Notes: generated by a model not told the origin, from the letters alone. A stretch of 32,000 nucleotides of DNA from Psychrobacter sp. DM4 (GCF_051307035.1 NZ_CP195536.1:1890001-1922000), one strand, 5' to 3'; shown: positions 5,710 through 27,413, counted from the first letter of the stretch. Translations and numbers: made by a program.

Positions 5710-8307
5710 CTAACTGACTCGCAACTTCCCAAAGATTAGTTTGTCATCAGCGTCCAACTCAACTTTGATGATGTCACCTGCGACAAAGTCACCTGCTAGC
5801 AGCTTCATCGACAGTGGGTTTTCGATCTCTTGCTGAATGGCGCGTTTGAGTGGACGTGCCCCATATACCGGATCGTAACCGACTGCGACCAGCTTATTCA
5901 TCGCATCGTGTGACAGCTCGATGTCCAGCTCGCGCTCATGCAAACGATGACGCAAACGATCAATCTGAATCTCAGCAATACCTGCCATCTGCGACATACC
6001 TAGCGGATGGAACACGACGATTTCATCAATACGGTTGACGAACTCTGGACGGAAATGTTGCCCGACCGAATCCATAACCTCCGCTTTGATATCCTCGTAA
6101 CTCTCACCAACCATTTCTTGAATCTTATGCGAGCCCAAGTTACTAGTCATAATGATAACCGTGTTCTTGAAATCAACAACGCGGCCTTGCGAATCTGTCA
6201 AACGCCCATCATCCAATACTTGCAACAAGATATTAAACACATCAGGGTGCGCTTTTTCAACCTCATCAAACAAGATGACGCTATAGGGCTTACGGCGTAC
6301 CGCTTCGGTCAGCGTACCGCCTTCCTCGTAGCCGACATATCCTGGAGGCGCGCCCACCAAGCGACTCACGCTGTGCTTCTCCATATACTCACTCATATCG
6401 ATACGCACGATAGCGTCTTCACTATCGAATAAGAAGTTGGCAAGCGACTTAGTCAGCTCAGTCTTACCGACACCCGTAGGCCCTAAGAAAAGAAAAGACC
6501 CTGAGGGACGATTGGGATCAGATAAACCTGCGCGACTGCGGCGCACCGCATTAGCAACGGCTTCGACCGCTTCGTCTTGACCGATAACGCGTTCATGAAG
6601 TTTGTCTTCCATCGCGATCATCTTGTCGCGCTCGCCTTGCAGCATTTTGCTCACAGGGATACCTGTTGCAGCCGCAACCACTTCTGCGATCTCATTATCC
6701 GTGACTTTGTTACGCAGCAGTTTGACGCCCGCAGGCTCGCCGATCTGTTCTGTTTGCTCAGCAAGGTCAATCTCAGCTATTTGTTTTTCGAGTTCCGGTA
6801 TGACGCCATATTGCAATCGAGACATCTCTGCATAATCACCATCACGTGTGGCTTTTTCTAGCTGAATACGTGCTCTATCTAAGTTTTCTTTATGTTGTTT
6901 GCTACCTTCAACGAGAGCCTTTTCTGCTTGCCAGATTTCAGTAAGATCGGCAAGGTCTCTTTCTAGCTCGTCTATTTGACCATCGAGCACTTTGCGCTCT
7001 GCTTGTGCGCCCACATCTTCTTCATTTTTGAGCACTTCACGTTGCATTTTAAGTTGAATCAAGCGGCTATCGAGCTTGCCCAGCGCTTCAGGCTTGCTAT
7101 CCATCTCCATACGTAGACGACTGGCGGCCTCATCAATTAAATCAATGGCTTTATCAGGCAGTTTGCGATCAGTAATATAGCGATGACTCATGCGCGCCGC
7201 CGCTATAATGGCGCTGTCTTGAATGACAACATTATGATGAAGCTCATAACGATTTTTGAGGCCACGTAGAATCGCAATGGTATCTTCTACGGTTGGCTCA
7301 TCGACCAGTACCTTTTGAAAACGACGCTCAAGCGCGGCGTCTTTTTCGATGTATTTACGGTATTCATCCAATGTGGTTGCGCCCACGCAGTGCAGCTCAC
7401 CGCGAGCGAGAGCAGGTTTTAGCATGTTACCTGCGTCCATTGCGCCCTCAGATTTACCTGCACCGACCATCGTATGTAGCTCGTCAATGAACAGGATAAC
7501 GTTACCCTCAGCCTTAGCCAAATCGCTAAGCACCGCTTTGAGACGCTCTTCGAACTCACCGCGAAACTTAGCACCTGCTATTAGCGCACCTAAGTCTAAT
7601 GACAGCACTTCTTTACGGCGAAGTCCTTCTGGGACATCACCCTTAATGATCTTTTGTGCCAATCCCTCAACGATAGCGGTTTTACCGACACCCGGCTCAC
7701 CGATCAGTACAGGGTTATTTTTGGTACGGCGTGAGAGCACTTGAATGGTACGGCGAATCTCTTCGTCCCGTCCAATGACCGGATCAAGCTTACCCAGCTC
7801 GGCTTGTTCCGTTAAATTAATCGTGTATTTATTGAGGGCATCACGCTGGTCTTCGGCGTTTTGATTGTTCACCGTCTCATCACCGCGCAATTGCTCTATC
7901 ACCGCTTTTAGTTTAGCTGCCGTAACGCCTGCGCCCTCAAAAATCTTTTTGGTTTCGCCCTGCTCAGCGAGTGCCAGCATGACCCATTCGGTCGCGATAA
8001 AATCATCGCCCTCTTTTTGGGCTTGACGATCTGCCAAATTTAAGATCTTGACCGAGCTTGGGTTTAGGTTGACGTCCCCTGTAGGATCACTAATCGTCGC
8101 TTGACTATCCAGCGCTTTGGCAACGCCGTTCTTGAGCGCAGGAATAGATGCGCCTGCCTGCTGACAGATGGATAAGTTCGACTCATCTTGTAATAAGACA
8201 GCAAGAAGATGCACCGGATCGATGCCCGTGTGGTCATGACCTAACGCTAGGCTCTGCGCCTCTTGTATAGCGGTTTGCAGCTTTTGCGTAAATTTTTCGA
8301 ATCTCAT
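5710..8307 (-). CDS. clpB: ATP-dependent chaperone/disaggregase ClpB
   Basis: 865-aa ORF. It has two AAA+ modules with Walker A 'GEPGVGKT' and 'GPTGVGKT', a long coiled-coil middle domain and a Clp N-domain. Confidence 0.97.
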
Positions 8308-12768: not shown

Positions 12769-13864
12769 TTACAATCCAGCTTTGAGACTAGCTTCGATAA
12801 ACTGATCTAAGTCACCATCGAGTACCGCGCCTGTGTTAAACGTCTCAACGCCCGTACGCAAGTCTTTGATACGGGAATCATCAAGGACATACGAGCGGAT
12901 TTGACTGCCCCAACCGACATCGGACTTGCCATCCTCGACGGCTTGCTGAGACTCCATGCGTTTTTGCATCTCAAGCTCATAAAGCTTGGCGCGCAGCATC
13001 TTCATTGCCGTTGCCTTGTTACCATGCTGACTACGCTCGTTTTGACAGGTGACAACGACGCCACTTGGCTCATGAGTAATACGCACCGCAGAATCAGTGG
13101 TGTTGACGTGCTGACCACCCGCACCTGATGAGCGATAGGTATCGATACGTAGATCAGCAGGATTGATATCGATCTCGATGTCATCATCGATCTCAGGGGA
13201 GACAAAAACGGCCGCAAACGACGTATGGCGACCATTATTGCTATCGAATGGTGATTTACGCACGAGACGATGCACCCCAATCTCAGTACGCAGCCAACCA
13301 AAAGCGTAGTCGCCTTTAATCTCGATAGTCGCAGACTTGATACCCGCGACGCTACCGGATGACACTTCAATCTCTTCAACTTTGAAGCCATGCGCCTCAG
13401 CCCAGCGGGTGTACATGCGTAATAGCATCTCTGCCCAATCTTGCGCTTCAGTACCGCCACTGCCCGACTGAATATCTAGATAGCAATTATTTGGATCCAT
13501 CTCACCGCTGAACATCCGACGAAACTCCAAATCTGCCACGCGCTTTTCGGCATTATCTAGTTCCGCTTGCACGTCTTTTAATAATGATTCCTCGTCCTCT
13601 TCTACCGCCAACTCAAGCATCGCTGAGGCATCTTCTAGCGTTGTTTCAAGCGAGACGACGACATCAATGACCCCATCTAAATGGCTTTTTTCTTTACTAA
13701 TTTTGGTCGCGCGTTCTGGATCGTTCCAGAGCTCAGGACTCTCCATTTCTAAATTGACTTCTTCTAGCCGCTCTTGCTTGCCATCGAAGTCAAAGATACC
13801 TCCGTAAGTCCTGTCCGCGCTCTGATAAATCTTTGATTTGTTCTTGATACGGATTAATTTCCAT
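12769..13864 (-). CDS. prfB: peptide chain release factor 2, with programmed +1 frameshift
   Basis: The ORF track shows only the 325-aa part from an internal Met. A 24-codon frame-0 leader (ATG 13864, [24 protein letters not shown]) ends at CTT TGA C and joins the main frame by a +1 shift, giving 364 aa in total. SPF and GGQ motifs are both present. Confidence 0.93.
13789..13801 (-). promoter_or_regulatory. prfB +1 frameshift (recoding) site
   Basis: The minus strand reads AGG TAT CTT TGA C, with GGAGG 3 nt upstream of the CUU slippery codon. E. coli has AGGGGGUAUCUUUGAC at the same place. Confidence 0.9.
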
Positions 13865-17077: not shown

Positions 17078-18325
17078 TTGAAATCATTGACCCAGATACA
17101 AGCAATTTTGGCACTAGCAGACGGTACGGTATTTCGCGGTGTCAGCATAGGCAGCCAAGGTCACCGTGTCGGTGAAGTGGTCTTTAACACGGCGATGACA
17201 GGCTATCAAGAGATCCTCACAGACCCAAGCTACGCGCGCCAACTGGTTACCCTCACCTACCCGCATATCGGCAATACGGGCACCAATGATGAGGACAGTG
17301 AATCGGGCAATATTGATTTCAAACAGCAAATATGGGCAGAGGGACTCATTATTCGCGATGCGACAATGGTCACTTCAAACTTTCGCAATACTGAATCTCT
17401 GAGCGACTACCTAGAGCGTCATGACACGGTTGCTATCGCTGAGATTGATACCCGTCAACTAACGCGTCTATTACGAGAGCAAGGCGCGCAGAATGGATGT
17501 CTTATGACTGCCTCTAATGGCGAGACTATTAGTGACGCTGATGTACAGCAAGCCATTCAATTGGCAAAAGATTTTGCGGGTCTAAAAGGCATGGATCTAG
17601 CTAAAGAAGCCAGTCATCCAGAAGGCTTTGAGTGGACGGCGGGCACGTGGGAGTTATCAGATACGCTACTCAACCGTGACGCTACTGGTAGCCATGACAG
17701 CGGTACGGGCGGGTTCTATAAGCAGCTGGGCACACATATCGAGCACAAGTATAATGTGGTTGCTTATGACTTTGGTACTAAGACCAATATATTACGCATG
17801 CTCGTCGATATCGGTGCTCGTGTGACCGTCGTTCCTGCGCAGACGCCAATTAAAGACGTGCTCGCGATGAATCCAGATGGTATATTTTTATCGAATGGCC
17901 CTGGCGACCCGGCCGCTAGTGATTATGCTATTGATAATGTTCGCCATATCATCGAAGAGACGGACATTCCGACTTTTGGTATTTGCTTAGGTCATCAGCT
18001 GATTGGACTTGCCAGTGGTGCTAAGACTATGAAGATGAAAACGGGTCATCATGGCGCGAATCATCCTGTGCAAGATTTAGCGACTAGTGTCGTGATGATT
18101 ACTAGTCAGAATCATGGTTTTGCGGTCGATGAAGATACGCTACCTGACAATGTTAAATCAACACATCGCTCATTATTTGATGGTACCAATCAAGGCATTG
18201 AGCTGACTAATAAGCCCGTCTTTAGCTTCCAAGGACACCCTGAAGCGAGCCCTGGCCCGCATGATGCTGCTGAGCTATTTGCTAAGTTTGCTGGGATGAT
18301 GGAGAAAAATAAGGCGAATAGCTAA
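17078..18325 (+). CDS. carA: carbamoyl-phosphate synthase small (glutaminase) subunit
   Basis: 415-aa ORF with the class-I amidotransferase triad region 'GICLGHQL' and '[13 protein letters not shown]'. It has a TTG start with GGAGG 6 nt upstream; E. coli carA also uses UUG. Confidence 0.96.
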
Positions 18326-19473
18326 TGGCGAATCAACTTACCCAAAAGTGGAAAATTAAAGACCTAAAAGGCGTCGGCGACGTTGAATTATCACTCGATG
18401 ATAGCAAACGGGTCTTTGTGTTCTTTGGTAGTAATGGTATTGGTAAGACTAAGACGCTAGAGGCTCTACTTTACTTTTTGCTAGCGCAGAATAAAAATTT
18501 TATACCCAAAGGTCATACGTTAAAAATATCAGATAGTATTTTTCAATCAATATGTTCAAATAATTTATGTATAAATGTGAAGAACGCTTTACTAAGCGAA
18601 AGTAAAATTTATCTTCCTAACATATTTAATCAAGTCGAGGTTAAAAATTACGACTCAGTTGCTTACATAGGAGCAAAACAAAGAGGTTCATCTGAAAAAA
18701 ATAGTAACCATCGAAATAAACCTATGGGAAGTTCTGAGTCACGCAGAGACACCCATTCCGAACTTTTTGAGTTAGCTATTGTTAATGGCAATTTAGATAG
18801 ATTAGGGATGAATCAAGACATTCATCATTGGTTCATCGAGCGTGCTCAATCTGTCAACCCTTATCAAAAGTCTGACGACAATCGACAAGTTGATATCGAT
18901 ACGGTTCTTGGCGCTTTAAACACTTTAGACAATCGCATTGGTAAAGCTCTCAATGTAGATGGTGACGATAATGTTTATCTGACTATCGAAGGACAAGAAA
19001 CCGAACTAAACAATTTAAGCTCAGGCTTTATCTCAGTAGTTAAAATTATCCAAGCCATTGTCTCTGCCTACTCTGCGTTTACTAATGAACAAGACTTACT
19101 TAATGTTAAAGGTGTCGTACTTATAGATGAAATAGAAAGTCATTTGCACGTAGAATGGCAGACTAGAATCATACCAACGCTAAAAGAGCTGTTTCCAAAC
19201 ACTACCTTTTATATCGCGACTCATTCCCCCTTAGTGTTATCACAACTTAGTGAAGGTGAGGCTTATCTACTTAAACGTGATAATGACAACATAGTGCGCT
19301 CTAGTGTAATTGACTCACCTAATAAGCGTATCTTAGCCAATGTCTTACGCGATGCTTTTGGTATTGACCTAAATGAGCTTAAAAGGGAGTCTATGGAAGA
19401 CGGTAGTCAAGATGTAGCAAAAAATCGCTTGTTAAAATTGCTTAGAGACCCAGCAGGTGACACTGGTGAGTAG
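18325..19473 (+). CDS. ABC/AAA_21-like (OLD/PtuA/AriA-type) ATPase of unknown function, first gene of the inserted cassette
   Basis: 382-aa ORF. It has Walker A 'GSNGIGKT' (aa 35-42), an ABC-signature-like 'LSSG' (aa 231-234), Walker B 'VVLIDEIESHLH' (aa 264-275) and H-loop 'ATHSP' (aa 298-302). Its ATG overlaps the carA stop (TAATG). It is AT-rich relative to its flanks. Confidence 0.75.
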   Translation: MANQLTQKWKIKDLKGVGDVELSLDDSKRVFVFFGSNGIGKTKTLEALLYFLLAQNKNFIPKGHTLKISDSIFQSICSNNLCINVKNALLSESKIYLPNIFNQVEVKNYDSVAYIGAKQRGSSEKNSNHRNKPMGSSESRRDTHSELFELAIVNGNLDRLGMNQDIHHWFIERAQSVNPYQKSDDNRQVDIDTVLGALNTLDNRIGKALNVDGDDNVYLTIEGQETELNNLSSGFISVVKIIQAIVSAYSAFTNEQDLLNVKGVVLIDEIESHLHVEWQTRIIPTLKELFPNTTFYIATHSPLVLSQLSEGEAYLLKRDNDNIVRSSVIDSPNKRILANVLRDAFGIDLNELKRESMEDGSQDVAKNRLLKLLRDPAGDTGE

Positions 19474-19891
19474 ATATATTCTGCTAGATGCTAATTTACT
19501 CATTGGCGCTTTTGATCATGACTCGGAAAATACAAAGCACATTCAGTCTAAACAGATTGTTGAAGCTTTACTATTAGACGATACTGTAAAAATCGCTATT
19601 ACACCGCTAATACGTTACGAAGTACTACGCGGCGTCCGCCGCGTGCCAACTGAGCAAATGGTTGAGATATTGAACGATTTTGAAGAATTTGAGATTACTG
19701 ACGTAGAAGGCAATAGAGCTTCTGATATCTATCGCTTAGCTCTTGTAAATAATCAAAAGTTAGACAAACGTAGTTTTGATGTTTTCCACTATGTAGTCGC
19801 TGAAATACGCAATCTAGAATGGATGAGTCAAGATAACGATTTGAGTAAAATTGCAAACCTCGCCAAACCTATTATTGAAGGACAAATTTAA
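19466..19891 (+). CDS. PIN-domain (VapC-like) putative ribonuclease, second gene of the inserted cassette
   Basis: N-terminal 'YILLDANLLIGAFD' is the classic PIN beta1 motif. In ORF-track numbering, acidic residues sit at PIN-like spacing: D11, E55, D108, D126/D128. The GTG at 19466 has AGGTGA 5 nt upstream; the ORF track uses GTG 19457. It overlaps the ATPase stop by 8 nt (17 nt from 19457), and its stop TAA abuts the carB ATG. Confidence 0.65.
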   Translation: MSRYILLDANLLIGAFDHDSENTKHIQSKQIVEALLLDDTVKIAITPLIRYEVLRGVRRVPTEQMVEILNDFEEFEITDVEGNRASDIYRLALVNNQKLDKRSFDVFHYVVAEIRNLEWMSQDNDLSKIANLAKPIIEGQI

Positions 19892-22800
19892 ATGCCAAAA
19901 CGTACCGACATAAAAAGCATTCTTATCATTGGCGCCGGCCCCATCGTTATCGGTCAAGCGTGCGAGTTTGACTACTCAGGCGCACAAGCCTGTAAAGCCC
20001 TTCGCGAAGAAGGCTACCGCGTTATCTTGGTCAACTCAAACCCAGCCACCATCATGACTGACCCTGATATGGCAGATGCCACTTATATCGAGCCGATTAC
20101 TTGGCAAACAGTTGAACAGATTATCAATGTCGAGCGTCCTGATGCCATCTTGCCAACGATGGGCGGACAGACCGCACTTAACTGTGCGCTGGATTTAGAT
20201 AAGCATGGCGTGCTAGAGAAGTATGGCTGTGAGCTGATTGGCGCAACTAAAGATTCGATTGAGATGGCAGAAGATCGTGATCTATTTGATAAAGCCATGA
20301 AGCGTATCGGACTTGAATGCCCGCGTGCTGAGATTGCTGAGACCATGGAGCAGGCTTTTGCCACCCAAGAAAAGATGGGCTATCCGTGTATCATACGCCC
20401 GTCCTTTACGATGGGCGGCTCAGGCGGCGGTATCGCATATAACCGTGATGAGTTCATTGAGATTTGTGAGCGCGGTTTTGATTTATCGCCAACCCATCAA
20501 TTGCTCATTGATGAGTCTTTAATCGGTTGGAAAGAGTACGAGACTGAAGTCGTCCGTGATAAAAACGACAACTGTATCATCGTCTGTACCATTGAGAACT
20601 TTGATCCGATGGGCGTGCATACGGGTGATTCAATCACCGTTGCCCCAGCACAAACCCTAACGGATAAAGAATATCAAATCATGCGTAACGCGTCCCTCGC
20701 GGTACTACGCGAAATTGGCGTTGAGACGGGTGGCTCAAACGTGCAGTTCGGTATCAATCCAAAGACCGGTCGTATGGTCGTCATCGAGATGAACCCGCGC
20801 GTATCTCGCTCATCAGCATTGGCATCAAAAGCAACAGGTTTTCCTATTGCTCGTATCGCCGCCAAGCTTGCGATCGGCTATACGCTTGATGAACTCCAAA
20901 ACGATATTACTGGCGGTGCAACGCCTGCGAGCTTTGAGCCTACCCTCGATTATGTTGTCACCAAAATACCGCGTTTTAACTTTGAAAAGTTCCCGCAAGC
21001 GGACAATATCCTATCGACGCAGATGAAATCGGTCGGTGAAGTTATGGCGATTGGTCGTAACTTCCAAGAGTCTATGCAAAAAGCATTGCGCGGTCTTGAG
21101 ACGGGTGCAGATGGTTTTGATGAGCAAATCGACTTATCCAAGGTTAGCACAGACAAAGCTCGTAGCGAGATCACCAATCGTTTGACCATCCCAACCCCTG
21201 AGCGTATTTTTTATATCGGCGACGCCTTTCGTATCGGTATGAGCGTTAATGAGGTCTTTAAGCTCACCAACATCGACCCTTGGTTCTTGGTACAGATCGA
21301 AGATATCATCAAGACTGAAACCCAAGTGCGCGCTCTCGGTTTTGGTGGTTTAAATGAGACCAATCTGCGTGGATTTAAGCGTAAAGGTTTATCAGATCTA
21401 CGTTTGGCAAAGCTGCTTGGCGTGTCACAAAAACAGCTACGCAAAAAACGTTGGGATTTAAATATTTATCCCGTTTATAAACGCGTTGATACCGCTGCTG
21501 CTGAGTTTGCGACCAGCACCGCTTATATGTACTCAAGCTACGATAGCGAGTGCGAAGCCAATCCGACTGACAACAAGAAAATCATGGTCATCGGCGGCGG
21601 TCCGAACCGTATTGGTCAAGGTATTGAGTTTGATTATTGCTGCGTGCACGCCGCTCTTGCCATGCGCGCGGATGGTTATGAGACTATTATGGTCAACTGT
21701 AACCCTGAAACGGTCTCAACCGATTATGATACCTCAGATCGTCTCTACTTTGAACCAATTACGTTAGAAGACGTGCTTGAAATCGTCCGTATTGAACAGC
21801 CTGACGGCGTCATTGTCCAGTTCGGTGGTCAAACCCCATTGAAGCTTGCCCGCGCTTTAGAGTCAGCGGGCGTTAATATCATCGGTACGAGCCCTGATGC
21901 TATTGACCGCGCCGAAGATCGTGAACGCTTCCAGCACATGATTCATCAGCTTAACCTTGTCCAACCTTCAAATGCGCTCGCGACGAGTCTCGAGGACGGT
22001 TTGGTCAAAGCCAAAGACGTCGGCTACCCGCTAGTGGTACGCCCATCATACGTCTTAGGTGGACGCGCGATGGAAATCGTCTACAACGAAGATGAGCTCA
22101 GACATTACTTGCGTACCGCCGTACAAGCCTCAAATGAGGCGCCTGTGCTGCTTGATCGCTTCTTGGATGATGCTATAGAAGTCGATGTTGATTGCGTTAG
22201 TGATGGCACCGATGTGGTCATCGGCGGCATCATGCAGCATATCGAACAGGCGGGCGTGCACTCTGGCGATTCAGCATGTTCATTGCCGCCTTACTCGCTA
22301 TCAGATGAGCTGTGTGATGTCATGCGCGAGCAAACCATTGCCATGGCAAAAGAGCTTGGCGTTATTGGACTTATGAACGTTCAGTTCGCAGTCAAAGGTG
22401 AAACGGTTTATATATTAGAAGTCAATCCACGGGCCGCGCGTACCGTACCTTTTGTCTCCAAGTGTATCGGTACTTCGCTTGCGCAGATTGCAGCGCGCTG
22501 TATGGCGGGCACGTCACTCAAAGATCAGGGGTTTATGACTGAGATTGTACCGTCTTTCTTTGCCGTAAAAGAGTCCGTATTTCCCTTTGCCAAGTTCCCA
22601 GGCGTTGACCCAATCTTGAGTCCTGAGATGAAATCAACGGGTGAAGTCATGGGTATCGGCAAAACCTTTGGCGAGGCTTTTTATAAAGCGGTCATCGGTA
22701 GTAATGAGCGCTTGCCTGGTCTGCCAACTGATGGCGAAAGCAAAACGGTCTTTATCTCCGTACGCGATAGCGACAAAACGCAAATCGCGCCTATTGCCCG

Positions 22801-23146
22801 CCAGCTTATTGATTACGGCTTTGATATCGTGGCGACCACTGGCACGCAAAAGGTGCTCGCAGATGCCGGTATCGACTGTCAGCAAATCAATAAAGTCACA
22901 GAGGGTCGCCCGCATATCGTCGATGCCTTGAAAAACGGTAAAATCGACCTTATTATTAATACGACTGAAGGCAAGCAAGCACAAGAAGATTCGTTCTCTA
23001 TTCGTCGCAGTGCTTTGCAAGGCAAGGTGTTTTATGTGACCACTTTAGGCGCGGCCGATGCGGTCTGTAAATCTTATGCCATTGACTTGCCCTTCGATGT
23101 TTATAAGCTACAAGACTTGCATGCGCAGGCTAAGCCTATCGCTTAG
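19892..23146 (+). CDS. carB: carbamoyl-phosphate synthase large subunit
   Basis: 1084-aa ORF with duplicated ATP-grasp halves ('[21 protein letters not shown]' / '[20 protein letters not shown]') and a C-terminal MGS-like allosteric domain. Confidence 0.98.
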
Positions 23147-23442: not shown

Positions 23443-23919
23443 ATGCAACGCTACCCTATGACTCCAGAAGGACATGCCGCTTTAGAAAGCGAGCTTAAGC
23501 AGCTAAAAACTGTCGATCGTCCTCGTATCACAGCTTCTATCGCTGAAGCGCGCGAACATGGCGATCTAAAAGAAAACGCTGAATATCATGCCGCACGTGA
23601 ACAACAAGGTTTTTGTGAGGCACGTATTCGCGACATCGAAGCCAAACTTGGCGGCGCACAAGTAATAGACATATCGACCTTAAAGCAAGAAGGCCGCGTA
23701 GTGTTTGGTGTGACTGTGGTCATTGAGAACATGGATACCGAAGAAGAAAAGCGTTACCAGATCGTCGGCGACGATGAGGCGGACTTTAAAGCGGGTAAAA
23801 TATCTGTCAATTCGCCTATCGCGCGTGGCCTAATTGGCAAGTCTGAAGGGGATGAGGCGCGAATTGAGACGCCAAAAGGCGTGGTTGAATATGAAGTGAT
23901 GAAAGTCATTTATCACTAG
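23443..23919 (+). CDS. greA: transcription elongation factor GreA
   Basis: 158-aa ORF. 'MT.EG...L..EL..LK...RP.I...[20 protein letters not shown]' is the canonical GreA N-terminal coiled coil. Its position after carB is the conserved gammaproteobacterial order. Confidence 0.96.
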
Positions 23920-25233: not shown

Positions 25234-26502
25234 ATGGCAACCATCAATTACGACAGACTTCAGGGTAAGCTCAACATCCTAGCGGACGCCGCTAAGTATG
25301 ATGTGTCCTGCTCCTCCTCAGCGGGCACGCGCAAAAATCAAGGCGGCGGTCTGGGTGATGCCTCCGCCACGGGTATCTGTCACAGCTATACCGAAGACGG
25401 TCGCTGCGTCAGCCTCCTCAAAATCCTACTCACCAATCACTGTATTTATGATTGTGCCTATTGTACTTCTCGTAAAAGCAACGATACCCCGCGCGCCGCT
25501 TTTAGTGTCGAGGAAGTCGTCGACTTGACCATGCAGTTTTATCGCCGTAATTATATCGAAGGGCTATTTTTGAGCTCAGGTATCTTTAAGAGCGGTGACT
25601 ATACAATGGAGCGTTTGGTTGAAGTTGCCAAGATATTGCGTACTCGCGAGCGCTTCAATGGATATATCCATCTAAAGACCATTCCGGGGGCATCAAAAGA
25701 GTTGCTATTAGAAGCAGGTCTATACGCTGATCGTCTGAGCGTCAATATCGAAATTCCGACTAAGTCAGGTCTAGCACTGCTCGCACCTGAGAAGTCACAT
25801 GACGAATTAAAAGCGCCGATGGAAACGGTAAAGACTGAAATCATCACGATTAAAGAGAGCAAAAAAAAGCATAAGAAAGCACCGAAATTTGTGCCAGCGG
25901 GTCAAACCAGTCAAATGATTGTGGGTGCGAGTAATGAGACGGACTTACAAGTGATTCAGCTTTCAAGCCACTTTTATAAAGAGTACGATCTCAAGCGCGT
26001 TTACTACTCAGGCTACGTGCCGATGCTATCGGATAGCCGCCTGCCAGCTATTGGCACGCCTGTGCCTATGGTACGTGAGAACCGTCTATATCAAGCAGAT
26101 TGGTTAATGCGTTTTTATGGGTTTGGCGCGCACGAAATCGTGGAACCAGAATCACCGTTTTTGGATCTAGACTGTGATCCAAAATTAGCTTGGGCGATAC
26201 GTCATCGCGAGCACTTTCCTGTCAATATTCAAACTGCAAGTTATGAGATGATCGTTCGTATTCCAGGTATCGGTACCAGAACAGCTAGAAAGATCGTCAA
26301 AGCGCGCAAGTTTAATCAGTTGACTCTAGAGCATCTCAAAAAGATGGGCGCAGCGGTCAATCGTGCCAAGTATTTTATTGCGACAACGGGTAAGAACGAG
26401 CACTTATCACATTTAACTCGCGACAACTTTCGCCAGTATGTACTGGCACAAACACAAACGAAATACAAAGATCAGCGTAGCGGTCAGTTGGCTTTGTTCT
26501 GA
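25234..26502 (+). CDS. putative DNA modification/repair radical SAM protein (TIGR03916-like)
   Basis: 422-aa ORF with the radical-SAM cluster motif 'CIYDCAYC' (CxxxCxxC) and a C-terminal helix-hairpin-helix 'IPGIGTRTARKIV'. It is paired with a DUF4130 gene, as is usual for this family. Confidence 0.8.
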   Translation: MATINYDRLQGKLNILADAAKYDVSCSSSAGTRKNQGGGLGDASATGICHSYTEDGRCVSLLKILLTNHCIYDCAYCTSRKSNDTPRAAFSVEEVVDLTMQFYRRNYIEGLFLSSGIFKSGDYTMERLVEVAKILRTRERFNGYIHLKTIPGASKELLLEAGLYADRLSVNIEIPTKSGLALLAPEKSHDELKAPMETVKTEIITIKESKKKHKKAPKFVPAGQTSQMIVGASNETDLQVIQLSSHFYKEYDLKRVYYSGYVPMLSDSRLPAIGTPVPMVRENRLYQADWLMRFYGFGAHEIVEPESPFLDLDCDPKLAWAIRHREHFPVNIQTASYEMIVRIPGIGTRTARKIVKARKFNQLTLEHLKKMGAAVNRAKYFIATTGKNEHLSHLTRDNFRQYVLAQTQTKYKDQRSGQLALF

Positions 26503-26540
26503 GTATTGGATTAAACTATCACTTAGCTACAGGATAACCT

Positions 26541-27413
26541 ATGTCGCAACTTCTTTCAAAAGATAGCTTTGCTATTGGTCAGGTGATGCCAAGTGTCTTG
26601 CTCTATGAGCCAAGCTTTGAAGGATGGTTGACAGCGGTTTATCAGGTTTATGATCGTAAATTGCAATATAATGAATCGCTACAACTTGTCGCTGAGGACA
26701 GCTACGTCCCTTCTTTGATAAGTACTGCCACGAGCGTGAATACTGATGATGAGCAAGCACAGCGCGTCCTAAAAAAGCTTAATGCCTTGCTCGGCCCTTC
26801 AGGTATGCGCCAGATCCTTTGGGGTTTTTTATCTGAAAAGGATGATATCGGTACTACTTTATTCCACATCGTCAAATATGCTATCGATTATCCTAAGCGC
26901 CGTATCCTAGAGGACTTAGGTCATTTAGACGTTTTGGAATTGGCACAAACGGTCAAATCCGTACACCGCGAAAAGCATCGTATGGAAGCTTTTGTACGTT
27001 TTGAGCATACGACTGATGACATTTATTTTGCGCGCGTAGAGCCTGATTTTAATGTACTGCCTATTATCGGTGAGCATTTTCGTCAGCGTTATCAAGATCA
27101 ACATTGGGCAATCTATGACTTAGCACGCGGCTATGGCATCTACTACGACAAGACTCTGAGTACACCGTCACGTCCTGCTGACTTGCAAACCATTACCGAT
27201 CTCGATGATGCGGTACTAAGCAATCCTACCAGTATCCATAGTCCTGATGAGCAGCGTTACCAGCGTTTTTGGCAGGGCTATTTCACTAATGTCAACATCA
27301 AAGAGCGCAAAAATAATCGTCTTCATAAACAGCACATGCCGCAGCGTTACTGGAAGTATTTGAGTGAAAAACAAATTTTGCCCAATGCTGATTACCTTCA
27401 AAAGAAAAGATAG
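26541..27413 (+). CDS. DUF4130 / TIGR03915-like putative DNA repair protein
   Basis: 290-aa ORF 38 nt downstream of the radical-SAM gene. The 'FVRFE...FARVEPDFNVLPIIGEHFRQRYQDQHWAIYD' pattern matches my memory of DUF4130, and the conserved gene pairing supports the call. Confidence 0.6.
   Translation: MSQLLSKDSFAIGQVMPSVLLYEPSFEGWLTAVYQVYDRKLQYNESLQLVAEDSYVPSLISTATSVNTDDEQAQRVLKKLNALLGPSGMRQILWGFLSEKDDIGTTLFHIVKYAIDYPKRRILEDLGHLDVLELAQTVKSVHREKHRMEAFVRFEHTTDDIYFARVEPDFNVLPIIGEHFRQRYQDQHWAIYDLARGYGIYYDKTLSTPSRPADLQTITDLDDAVLSNPTSIHSPDEQRYQRFWQGYFTNVNIKERKNNRLHKQHMPQRYWKYLSEKQILPNADYLQKKR

Follow-up and report, generated by a model that had tools for sequence, protein, structure and literature searches.

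HEC-03, an ABC ATPase paired with a VapC-like PIN protein and embedded in Hma systems, lowers plaquing in Escherichia coli by orders of magnitude; both genes are needed for this effect, and the pair is toxic on induction with isopropyl β-D-thiogalactopyranoside (IPTG) (10.1101/2024.01.29.577857). PARIS is built on an ABC ATPase that senses a phage factor and releases a tRNA-cutting nuclease (PMC11464382, PMC12409363), its AriB component is a tRNA-cleaving nuclease (PMC12409363), and the PtuAB proteins of Retron-Eco7 degrade tRNA-Tyr (PMC12673091). Here we describe a two-gene cassette of Psychrobacter sp. DM4 in which a PtuA-like ABC ATPase is followed by a VapC-like PIN-domain nuclease, both placed between carA and carB, the genes for the two subunits of carbamoyl-phosphate synthase. 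The cassette lies within a stretch of 32,000 nucleotides (GCF_051307035.1 NZ_CP195536.1:1890001-1922000; hereafter the window), from the first letter of which all positions are counted unless another locus is named. Judged by analogy with the systems above, the cassette is probably, although by no means securely, a nuclease-based immunity or abortive-infection module in which the HNH partner of a PtuA-type ATPase has been replaced by a VapC-like PIN RNase.

The two overlapping open reading frames (ORFs) that a sequence-only reading of the window had reported were confirmed at their positions (Table 1). Like CarA, the ATPase and PIN proteins match those of the Psychrobacter sp. DM4 genome with 100% identity. 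Translation of gene 1 revealed the Walker A, LSSG signature, Walker B and H-loop motifs of ABC/AAA_21-type ATPases, and an alignment of 27 sequences showed that these motifs and the Q-loop, whose glutamine is Q181, are all invariant. Pfam searches matched gene 1 to AAA_21 (1.3e-14) and AAA_15 (3.2e-13), both exceeding the gathering cut-offs, and gene 2 to PIN (PF01850; 2.1e-11, 44.9 bits with a cut-off of 23.6). In gene 2, the acidic D-E-D-D set was followed through 31 homologues: D8, E52 and D105 never vary, and D125 is present in at least 90%. The ATPase motif set, the expected Pfam families and the PIN-spaced acidic residues named in the sequence-only reading are thus all borne out. Gene 2 could start at GTG 19457, as in the ORF listing, giving 144 aa, or at GTG 19466, giving 141 aa. 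The second is the most likely start, because AGGTG lies 7 nt upstream, the homologues begin at the equivalent M-S-R/K-Y, and it is the 141-aa form that carries a database name (VapC family toxin in NCBI/UniRef); starting there, gene 2 overlaps the end of the ATPase gene, stop codon included, by 8 nt. The ratio of nonsynonymous to synonymous substitution (dN/dS; pairwise NG86) against a Psychrobacter orthologue was 0.04-0.06 for the ATPase core and the PIN gene and 0.05 for carA. Both genes are real and under strong purifying selection.

When one representative genome for each GTDB species was scanned with a sequence pattern, 367 relatives of the ATPase emerged, the best 80 loci of which were examined (the genomic loci); a reciprocal set comprised 62 metagenomic loci seeded with the PIN protein. 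The results showed that a PIN gene lies directly downstream of the ATPase gene in 77 of the 80 genomic loci, one exception being a contig end, and that an ATPase gene lies directly upstream of the PIN gene in 59 of the 62 metagenomic loci, the other three being contig ends or fragments. The junction ranges from -11 to +15 nt in almost all loci, most commonly as an overlap of 4, 8 or 1 nt. The co-conservation in other genomes on which the sequence-only reading had staked its proposal is therefore present in both sets: ATPase and PIN are near-obligately linked, a pattern expected for two subunits of one complex. In Xanthomonas axonopodis DSM 3585 (L043 2676-4238), the two are fused into one ORF of 520 aa, a junction that differs from that of X. 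populi, where stop and start codons overlap as ATGA. The 520-aa ORF may be a fusion that exists in nature or may stem from a faulty assembly; a natural fusion would suggest that the C-terminus of the ATPase and the N-terminus of the PIN protein lie close together.

In the window, the stop codon of carA and the start codon of the ATPase gene overlap as TAATG, base 18325 being common to both genes, and the ATG of carB begins at 19892, the base directly after the PIN stop codon, leaving no spacer. The cassette therefore sits inside the carAB operon, with no intergenic sequence on either side. The sequence-only reading was right in seeing no transporter, SMC, RecF or RecN context, but it overlooked this embedding. 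The GC content is 0.36-0.39 in the cassette and 0.48-0.49 in carA and carB. A scan detected no terminator-like site within the cassette, and promoter-like consensus matches in it did not rise above the expectation from shuffled sequences. Between 17900 and 20300, no inverted repeats were found and the direct repeats were short and at chance level; no integrase or transposase was found among the neighbouring ORFs. In Xanthomonas citri, reverse-transcription PCR showed that carA-orf-carB-greA-rpfE are co-transcribed from one promoter, which is repressed by uracil, arginine and glutamate (PMC4619228). Given the codon overlap at both ends, the lack of an internal terminator or of an excess of promoter matches, and the read-through in X. 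citri, we propose that the cassette is transcribed by read-through from the carA promoter and that its dosage tracks carAB regulation. In Xanthomonas and other loci, too, greA follows carB.

Table 1. Features of the cassette and its flanking genes in the window
Feature	Position	Strand	Basis and remarks
carA (carbamoyl-phosphate synthase small subunit)	17078..18325	+	ORF; 100% identical to Psychrobacter sp. DM4 CarA; upstream flank
PtuA-like ABC (AAA_21/AAA_15) ATPase, gene 1, 382 aa	18325..19473	+	Pfam, PADLOC, PDB sequences, Foldseek; proposed sensor and regulator
Walker A GSNGIGKT, aa 35-42	18427..18450	+	Translation; G35, N37, G38, G40, K41, T42 invariant
Hypervariable insert, aa 55-135, Walker A helix to Q-loop	18487..18729	+	Identity and dN/dS comparisons
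ABC signature LSSG, aa 231-234	19015..19026	+	L231, S232, S233, G234 invariant
Walker B VVLIDE, aa 263-269, then IESHLH	19111..19131	+	D268, E269, I270, E271, S272, H273, L274, H275 invariant
H-loop ATHSP, aa 298-302	19216..19230	+	T299, H300, S301 invariant
VapC-like PIN-domain nuclease, gene 2, 141 aa	19466..19891	+	Pfam PIN; proposed RNase effector
PIN catalytic codon D8	19487-19489	+	Homologue conservation
PIN catalytic codon E52	19619-19621	+	Homologue conservation
PIN catalytic codon D105	19778-19780	+	Homologue conservation
PIN catalytic codon D125	19838-19840	+	Homologue conservation
carB (carbamoyl-phosphate synthase large subunit)	19892..23146	+	ORF; Pfam CPSase domains at orthologous loci; downstream flank
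greA	23443..23919	+	Pfam GreA_GreB; closes the conserved carA-(x)-carB-greA order

The closest protein families of both genes were identified by profile, sequence and fold. PtuA models of PADLOC matched the ATPase with an E-value of 4.9e-36 over aa 8-342 and made up 24 of its 25 best PADLOC matches, and every significant match in a search of PDB sequences was PtuA. The AlphaFold model of the ATPase (pLDDT 82.6) gave the same picture in Foldseek, where the top 50 matches were all PtuA, from the retrons Ec78, Eco7 and Ec83 and from E. coli Septu (4e-17 to 1e-13). At 382 aa the ATPase falls 70-170 aa short of the PtuA chains matched in the PDB (456-552 aa). In PtuA, a long helical insert separates the Q-loop from the signature motif, whereas the distance between these two motifs is only about 45 aa in the ATPase described here. 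The C-terminal helices of the ATPase (aa 335-375) are conserved and were modelled at low confidence. For the PIN protein (pLDDT 90.2), the nearest folds were the VapC11, VapC15 and VapC20 toxins of Mycobacterium tuberculosis, with TM scores of about 0.7 (up to 0.73), followed by other VapC toxins; its score against the NCBIfam VapC equivalog was 22 bits, with a cut-off of 80. The VapC-type fold together with the conserved acidic residues predicts that the PIN protein should be catalytically active.

One region of the ATPase departs from this conservation. The mean pairwise identity of aa 55-135 was 17.7%, compared to 58-67% in the flanking segments, and in comparisons of Psychrobacter alleles that share 87-95% identity in their N- and C-terminal parts, identity within the insert was only 28-31%. 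At the DNA level, the insert appears as a trough of 39-60% identity in a background of 75-93% that runs unbroken from carA through the PIN gene into carB. The dN/dS of the insert was about 0.7, below 1 and with dS saturated, compared to 0.02-0.06 elsewhere (pairwise NG86). The sequence-only reading had marked the middle of the ATPase, aa 60-230, as matching nothing familiar and as a possible sensor or dimerisation insert; a variable region with a possible sensor role does exist there but is narrower, and aa 136-230 hold the conserved Q-loop region. The position of the insert is that of 'Insert 1' in the ABC nomenclature of Payne et al. (10.1101/2024.01.29.577857). A fast-changing surface, carried by a conserved ATPase whose effector partner stays constant, has the expected look of a trigger-recognition module; we therefore propose the insert as a putative trigger-recognition surface, and its variability would be compatible with an arms race.

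The order carA-[ATPase-PIN]-carB recurs in both sets, in about 41 of 80 genomic and 22 of 62 metagenomic loci. Across the Moraxellaceae, Xanthomonas/Lysobacteraceae and several betaproteobacterial groups (Comamonadaceae, Accumulibacter, Azoarcus, Gallionella), some 40 species share this layout. The hosts are Psychrobacter, Moraxella and Enhydrobacter, Xanthomonas and Lysobacteraceae, the betaproteobacterial groups just named, Kushneria and others, and a stop/start overlap at both cassette ends is common among these loci. In a neighbour-joining tree calculated without bootstrap, the carAB-embedded ATPases cluster apart from those in other contexts, and their branch mostly tracks taxonomy, with exceptions such as Kushneria. 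Three contigs of metagenome-assembled genomes, labelled Cytophagales (L054), 'Borreliella' (L056) and 'Francisella' (L058), carry a proteobacteria-like carA/carB or cassette, with CarB 64% identical to that of Psychrobacter, and are probably mis-binned or mislabelled.

Members of the other clade occupy a range of sites, and the upstream gene is co-oriented with the cassette in 27 of 31 of these loci. The cassette lies in type I restriction-modification (R-M) operons in Thiothrix (L046, L062; between hsdS and hsdR) and Thiomicrospira (L078, L049; after hsdM/hsdS), after ureC in other Thiothrix and in Thiolinea, after hrpA in Aggregatibacter, after an HSP20-family (ibpAB-like) gene in Enterobacteriaceae, and after an APH-DUF2007-GATase_4 gene row in other Psychrobacter species. 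In Neisseria gonorrhoeae, it is found in the NADH dehydrogenase operon, with nuoL and nuoM as its neighbours on the two sides. In this copy (strain 2022NG-0032, NZ_CP119142.1; L090 5971-7611), the ATPase is 41% identical, and a frameshift divides it between ORFs 5971-6969 and 6828-7139; the 2.17-Mb chromosome that carries it is listed as a plasmid in PLSDB. Cassettes closely akin to one another stand after ureC in some Thiothrix/Thiolinea species (L042, L045, L060) and between hsdS and hsdR in others (L046, L062), which indicates a recent relocation. The cassette thus moves, closely related Thiothrix carrying it at differing sites.

Comparison of near relatives showed that the cassette is accessory, being present in some and absent from others. 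The Psychrobacter genome with the closest CarA relative (GCA_947495055.1, L091; 94% identical) is without the cassette and has a carA-carB spacer of 47 nt. This spacer and the end of carA correspond to about 60 nt of the 3' end of the PIN gene (L091 6230-6310), and the junction, empty at first sight, is a deletion scar. The carA gene of this genome reads into the PIN remnant, so that its CarA has 418 aa rather than 415. P. aquimaris and P. luti have no cassette between carA and carB and carry unrelated spacers of 140-152 nt there; P. aquimaris has a cassette of the other clade elsewhere in its genome (L083). The gap between carA and carB was accordingly found empty (L092, L093), scarred (L091), filled by the cassette alone, or filled by the cassette and further cargo, a state seen in several genomes of Moraxella and of betaproteobacteria. 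Such cargo lies upstream of the cassette at L014 4609-5745, L019 4605-5973, L020 4600-5322, L022 5256-5978 and L031 3534-4046 and in the gaps of L017, L018 and L044. Some of the cargo is defence- or phage-like (an HNH_2 endonuclease, proteins of the Fic/DOC and ORF6N/Rha-like kinds, and a PRTase accompanied by an unknown protein of 187 aa) and some is metabolic (LysE with PdxJ and ICMT with PhzF, named by reading the sequences, and a peptidase S51, identified by Pfam). Comamonadaceae-like genomes (L023 5333-5701, L031 3151-3513, L032 5591-5962) also share, downstream of carA and ahead of the cassette, an ORF of about 120 aa (MKLFSFP...LEKAI...) that is conserved but matches no Pfam family. The carA-carB gap acts as a small variable island.

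Such a gap resembles the minimal mobile element described in Neisseria by Saunders and Snyder, in which a conserved gene pair encloses differing cassettes that are swapped by homologous recombination (PMC3082526). Like that element, the carA-carB gap holds variable cassettes between conserved genes; the flanks are conserved, whole-gene cassettes differ by strain or species, and no integrase or repeats are present, and the gonococcal ATPase-PIN copy itself sits between nuoL and nuoM. Unlike it, the flanks here are two genes of one operon, joined to the cassette by overlapping codons. By analogy, the cassette is probably exchanged by homologous recombination of its flanks, a route with which the absence of repeats and of an integrase is compatible.

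On the immunity reading, the ATPase and the PIN protein would be made in fixed proportion from their overlapping genes, and the complex would keep the PIN protein inactive. A phage-derived trigger would be recognised through the insert at aa 55-135, and ATP binding or hydrolysis would then alter the complex, so that the PIN protein is freed or activated. The PIN protein would cleave host and/or phage RNA; VapC toxins, the PtuAB of Retron-Eco7 and PARIS suggest tRNA or rRNA by analogy, and this cleavage would stop translation and phage growth, aborting the infection. Complex formation, inhibition and release, the RNA target, the defence phenotype and the mode of spread are all steps that we infer. 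What argues for defence is the combination of a PtuA-like ATPase and a VapC-like PIN protein with strict pairing, a hypervariable insert and an accessory nature; the location of relatives inside type I R-M operons, that is, guilt by embedding; and the precedent of HEC-03, according to which a pair of ABC ATPase and PIN protein can defend.

Several observations weigh against this interpretation. For this family, defence, toxicity and RNA cleavage are predictions. The cassette has settled into carAB tightly and, it appears, for a long time: many bacterial families share the position, codons overlap and the tree mostly tracks taxonomy. This is unusual for defence genes and could mean a host function. 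No defence island was found in the window, where the scanned neighbours were housekeeping genes or had no Pfam match; those with a match encode RF2, a HAD phosphatase, PAP2, GreA and a radical-SAM/DUF4130 pair. Among plasmids and phages, tblastn detected just distant PtuA-like ATPases with about 26-37% identity, the sole match of 41% being the mislabelled gonococcal chromosome. The cassette is also not a recognised system, as the ATPase scored 102 bits against the NCBIfam PtuA equivalog, whose cut-off is 500, and the PIN protein had no match among the PADLOC models. Finally, positive selection in the insert is not claimed, its dN/dS being below 1 and dS saturated.

Among the competing explanations, an addiction module of the toxin-antitoxin (TA) type deserves the most attention, although we consider it rather unlikely. 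Here the cassette would be a selfish rider of operons, with the PIN protein as toxin and the ATPase as an unusually large antitoxin and with no dedicated anti-phage benefit; it would persist because its imprecise loss harms carAB, and perhaps through post-segregational killing. The naming of gene 2 as a VapC-family toxin in RefSeq, a fold nearest to VapC toxins, the overlap and strict pairing of the genes, sites among essential or important genes of unrelated operons (carAB, nuoL-nuoM, after ureC, after hrpA) and the toxicity of HEC-03 on induction are all consistent with it. However, no small DNA-binding antitoxin of the VapB kind is present, and L091 has lost the cassette cleanly while both car genes stayed intact, so that the position does not block loss. 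The hypervariable insert and the R-M embedding are better explained by interaction with invaders, and TA and defence roles can in any case coexist.

Much less probable is a function in the host itself, coupled to carbamoyl-phosphate synthetase or to pyrimidine/arginine metabolism; as an RNase/ATPase pair, the cassette might, for example, process or destabilise the carAB transcript and so set the CarA:CarB ratio. The recurrent gene order with codon overlap at both junctions and the separate clustering of carAB-embedded ATPases in the unbootstrapped tree would fit such a role, as would the similarity of the cassette between Psychrobacter strains, which outside the insert is about that of carA/carB. 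Against it stand near relatives without the cassette, clear homologues in unrelated operons, unrelated cargo in the same gap (HNH_2, Fic/DOC, PRTase, ORF6N) and a hypervariable insert that is hard to square with a fixed housekeeping substrate; moreover, 5,426 E. coli genomes searched at the DNA level gave zero matches to the enterobacterial version of the cassette. The patchy, accessory distribution equally disfavours a DNA repair or chromosome-maintenance pair, in which a RecF/RecN/SMC-like ATPase would act with a structure-specific PIN/FEN-like nuclease and to which we assign the lowest probability of all, a very small one. PIN-like domains do include DNA flap nucleases, and the N-terminal P-loop region has weak matches to Pfam SMC_N (1.1e-05, below the cut-off) and NCBIfam RecF (6.5e-06, far below it), but these matches are short as well as sub-threshold, the best full-length matches are PtuA, and the PIN protein is of the VapC type rather than the FEN or Mut7-C type. 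A nuclease-based immunity module is thus the reading that we retain.

If confirmed as defence, the cassette would represent a widespread unnamed branch of ABC-ATPase-plus-nuclease immunity in which a PtuA-like ATPase works with a PIN protein replacing HNH. With 382 and 141 aa it is a compact model, and its natural series of insert alleles on a constant effector is suited to the mapping of trigger specificity. Its residence inside biosynthetic and respiratory operons is an unusual feature, and defence discovery based on islands or mobile elements would miss cassettes fused into biosynthetic operons in dozens of species. We also raise, as a possibility that is more doubtful than likely, that such modules are promoterless immune cassettes inside housekeeping operons (carA|carB, nuoL|nuoM, after ureC, hsdS|hsdR). 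The carAB promoter, which senses the pyrimidine and arginine supply, would then induce the cassette when a phage drains the nucleotide pools, the flanks would serve as homology arms for transformation, and imprecise loss would be costly. The idea raises a link between nucleotide-pool regulation and immune gene dosage, and the arrangement extends the concept of the minimal mobile element beyond Neisseria and into operon interiors.

Two neighbouring loci of the window are recorded here for completeness. The release factor 2 gene at 12769-13746 on the minus strand is a 325-aa ORF with a PCRF match from profile position 12, an extent that would fit the programmed +1 frameshift which prfB usually has close to its 5' end. 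At 25234-27413 on the plus strand, a radical-SAM/HHH protein (422 aa) adjoins a DUF4130 protein (290 aa); these genes, which we take to be a conserved pair with a putative role in DNA repair or DNA modification, are unrelated to the cassette.

Among described systems, HEC-03 is the one with the same architecture. The sequence-only reading knew of no named system that pairs this type of ATPase with a PIN effector; HEC-03 overturns that claim as regards the architecture, although the family itself is still undescribed within the scope searched. In both, an ABC ATPase gene precedes a PIN gene in the same order, adjacent, co-oriented and overlapping, and the VapC structure with which the HEC-03 PIN protein was compared, 6A7V, is the top fold match of the PIN protein described here. 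The HEC-03 sequences (ATPase WP_025259138, PIN WP_025259137) were taken from the supplement of Payne et al. and compared directly. BLASTP between the ATPases showed just a 38-aa Walker A match with an E-value of 0.01, hhalign gave a probability of 0.3% for the PIN proteins, and the PIN protein had no match to the HEC-03 model PDLC04147 although that model is in the PADLOC library, so that homology was rejected for both. The HEC-03 ATPase itself matched its own PADLOC model at 5e-231, followed by NsnB and AriA, and belongs to the DUF3696/NsnB/AriA branch, whereas the ATPase of the cassette belongs to the PtuA branch. By these sequence comparisons, the family described here is not homologous to HEC-03 beyond common folds.

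The comparison with Septu, PARIS and AbiL drawn in the sequence-only reading was apt. Septu and the PtuAB of type I-A retrons are closest, having the nearest ATPase by profile hidden Markov model, PDB sequence and fold and the same two-gene layout, in which the gene for a small nuclease follows that for the ATPase; by analogy, an ATPase oligomer that controls the nuclease is likely to be another shared trait. They differ in that the partner is a PIN protein here and PtuB is an HNH protein, and in the shorter ATPase of the cassette. Membership in Septu was rejected, as the sole partner is the PIN protein, no HNH gene is present and the cassette is bounded by carA and carB without spacer; membership in the type I-A retrons was rejected as well, since no reverse transcriptase ORF was found near the cassette and no Rfam match within the window. 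PARIS (AriA with the Toprim protein AriB) and the ATPase-Toprim pairs of the AbiL/PD-T4-4 type share the general design but differ in effector fold, and the ATPase matched AriA only with an E-value of 0.008 over about 60 C-terminal aa, with no Toprim gene present, so that PARIS was rejected too. With VapBC the cassette shares a VapC-type PIN protein with the D-E-D-D set, for which cleavage of tRNA or rRNA is likely by analogy, but no VapB is present and the upstream partner is a 382-aa ABC ATPase. VapBC was therefore also rejected: instead of a small DNA-binding VapB, an ATPase gene stands upstream in 59 of the 62 PIN-seeded loci.

Further candidates with PIN or PIN-like domains were set aside. 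The PIN-containing DS-3 and DS-5 of DefensePredictor have architectures that differ from the cassette, Menshen is a three-gene system whose PIN-like domains are without catalytic residues, and ptuXYZ is a three-gene system in which the PIN-like domain of PtuZ is fused to a BECR/YoeB toxin domain. None of the literature searched dealt with an ATPase/PIN pair inserted between the two car genes, the ABC-ATPase classification of Krishnan et al. 2020 lying outside the comparison. Taken together, the architecture of an ABC ATPase with a PIN protein is already known and validated through HEC-03, and the family described here is a separate, apparently unnamed instance of it.

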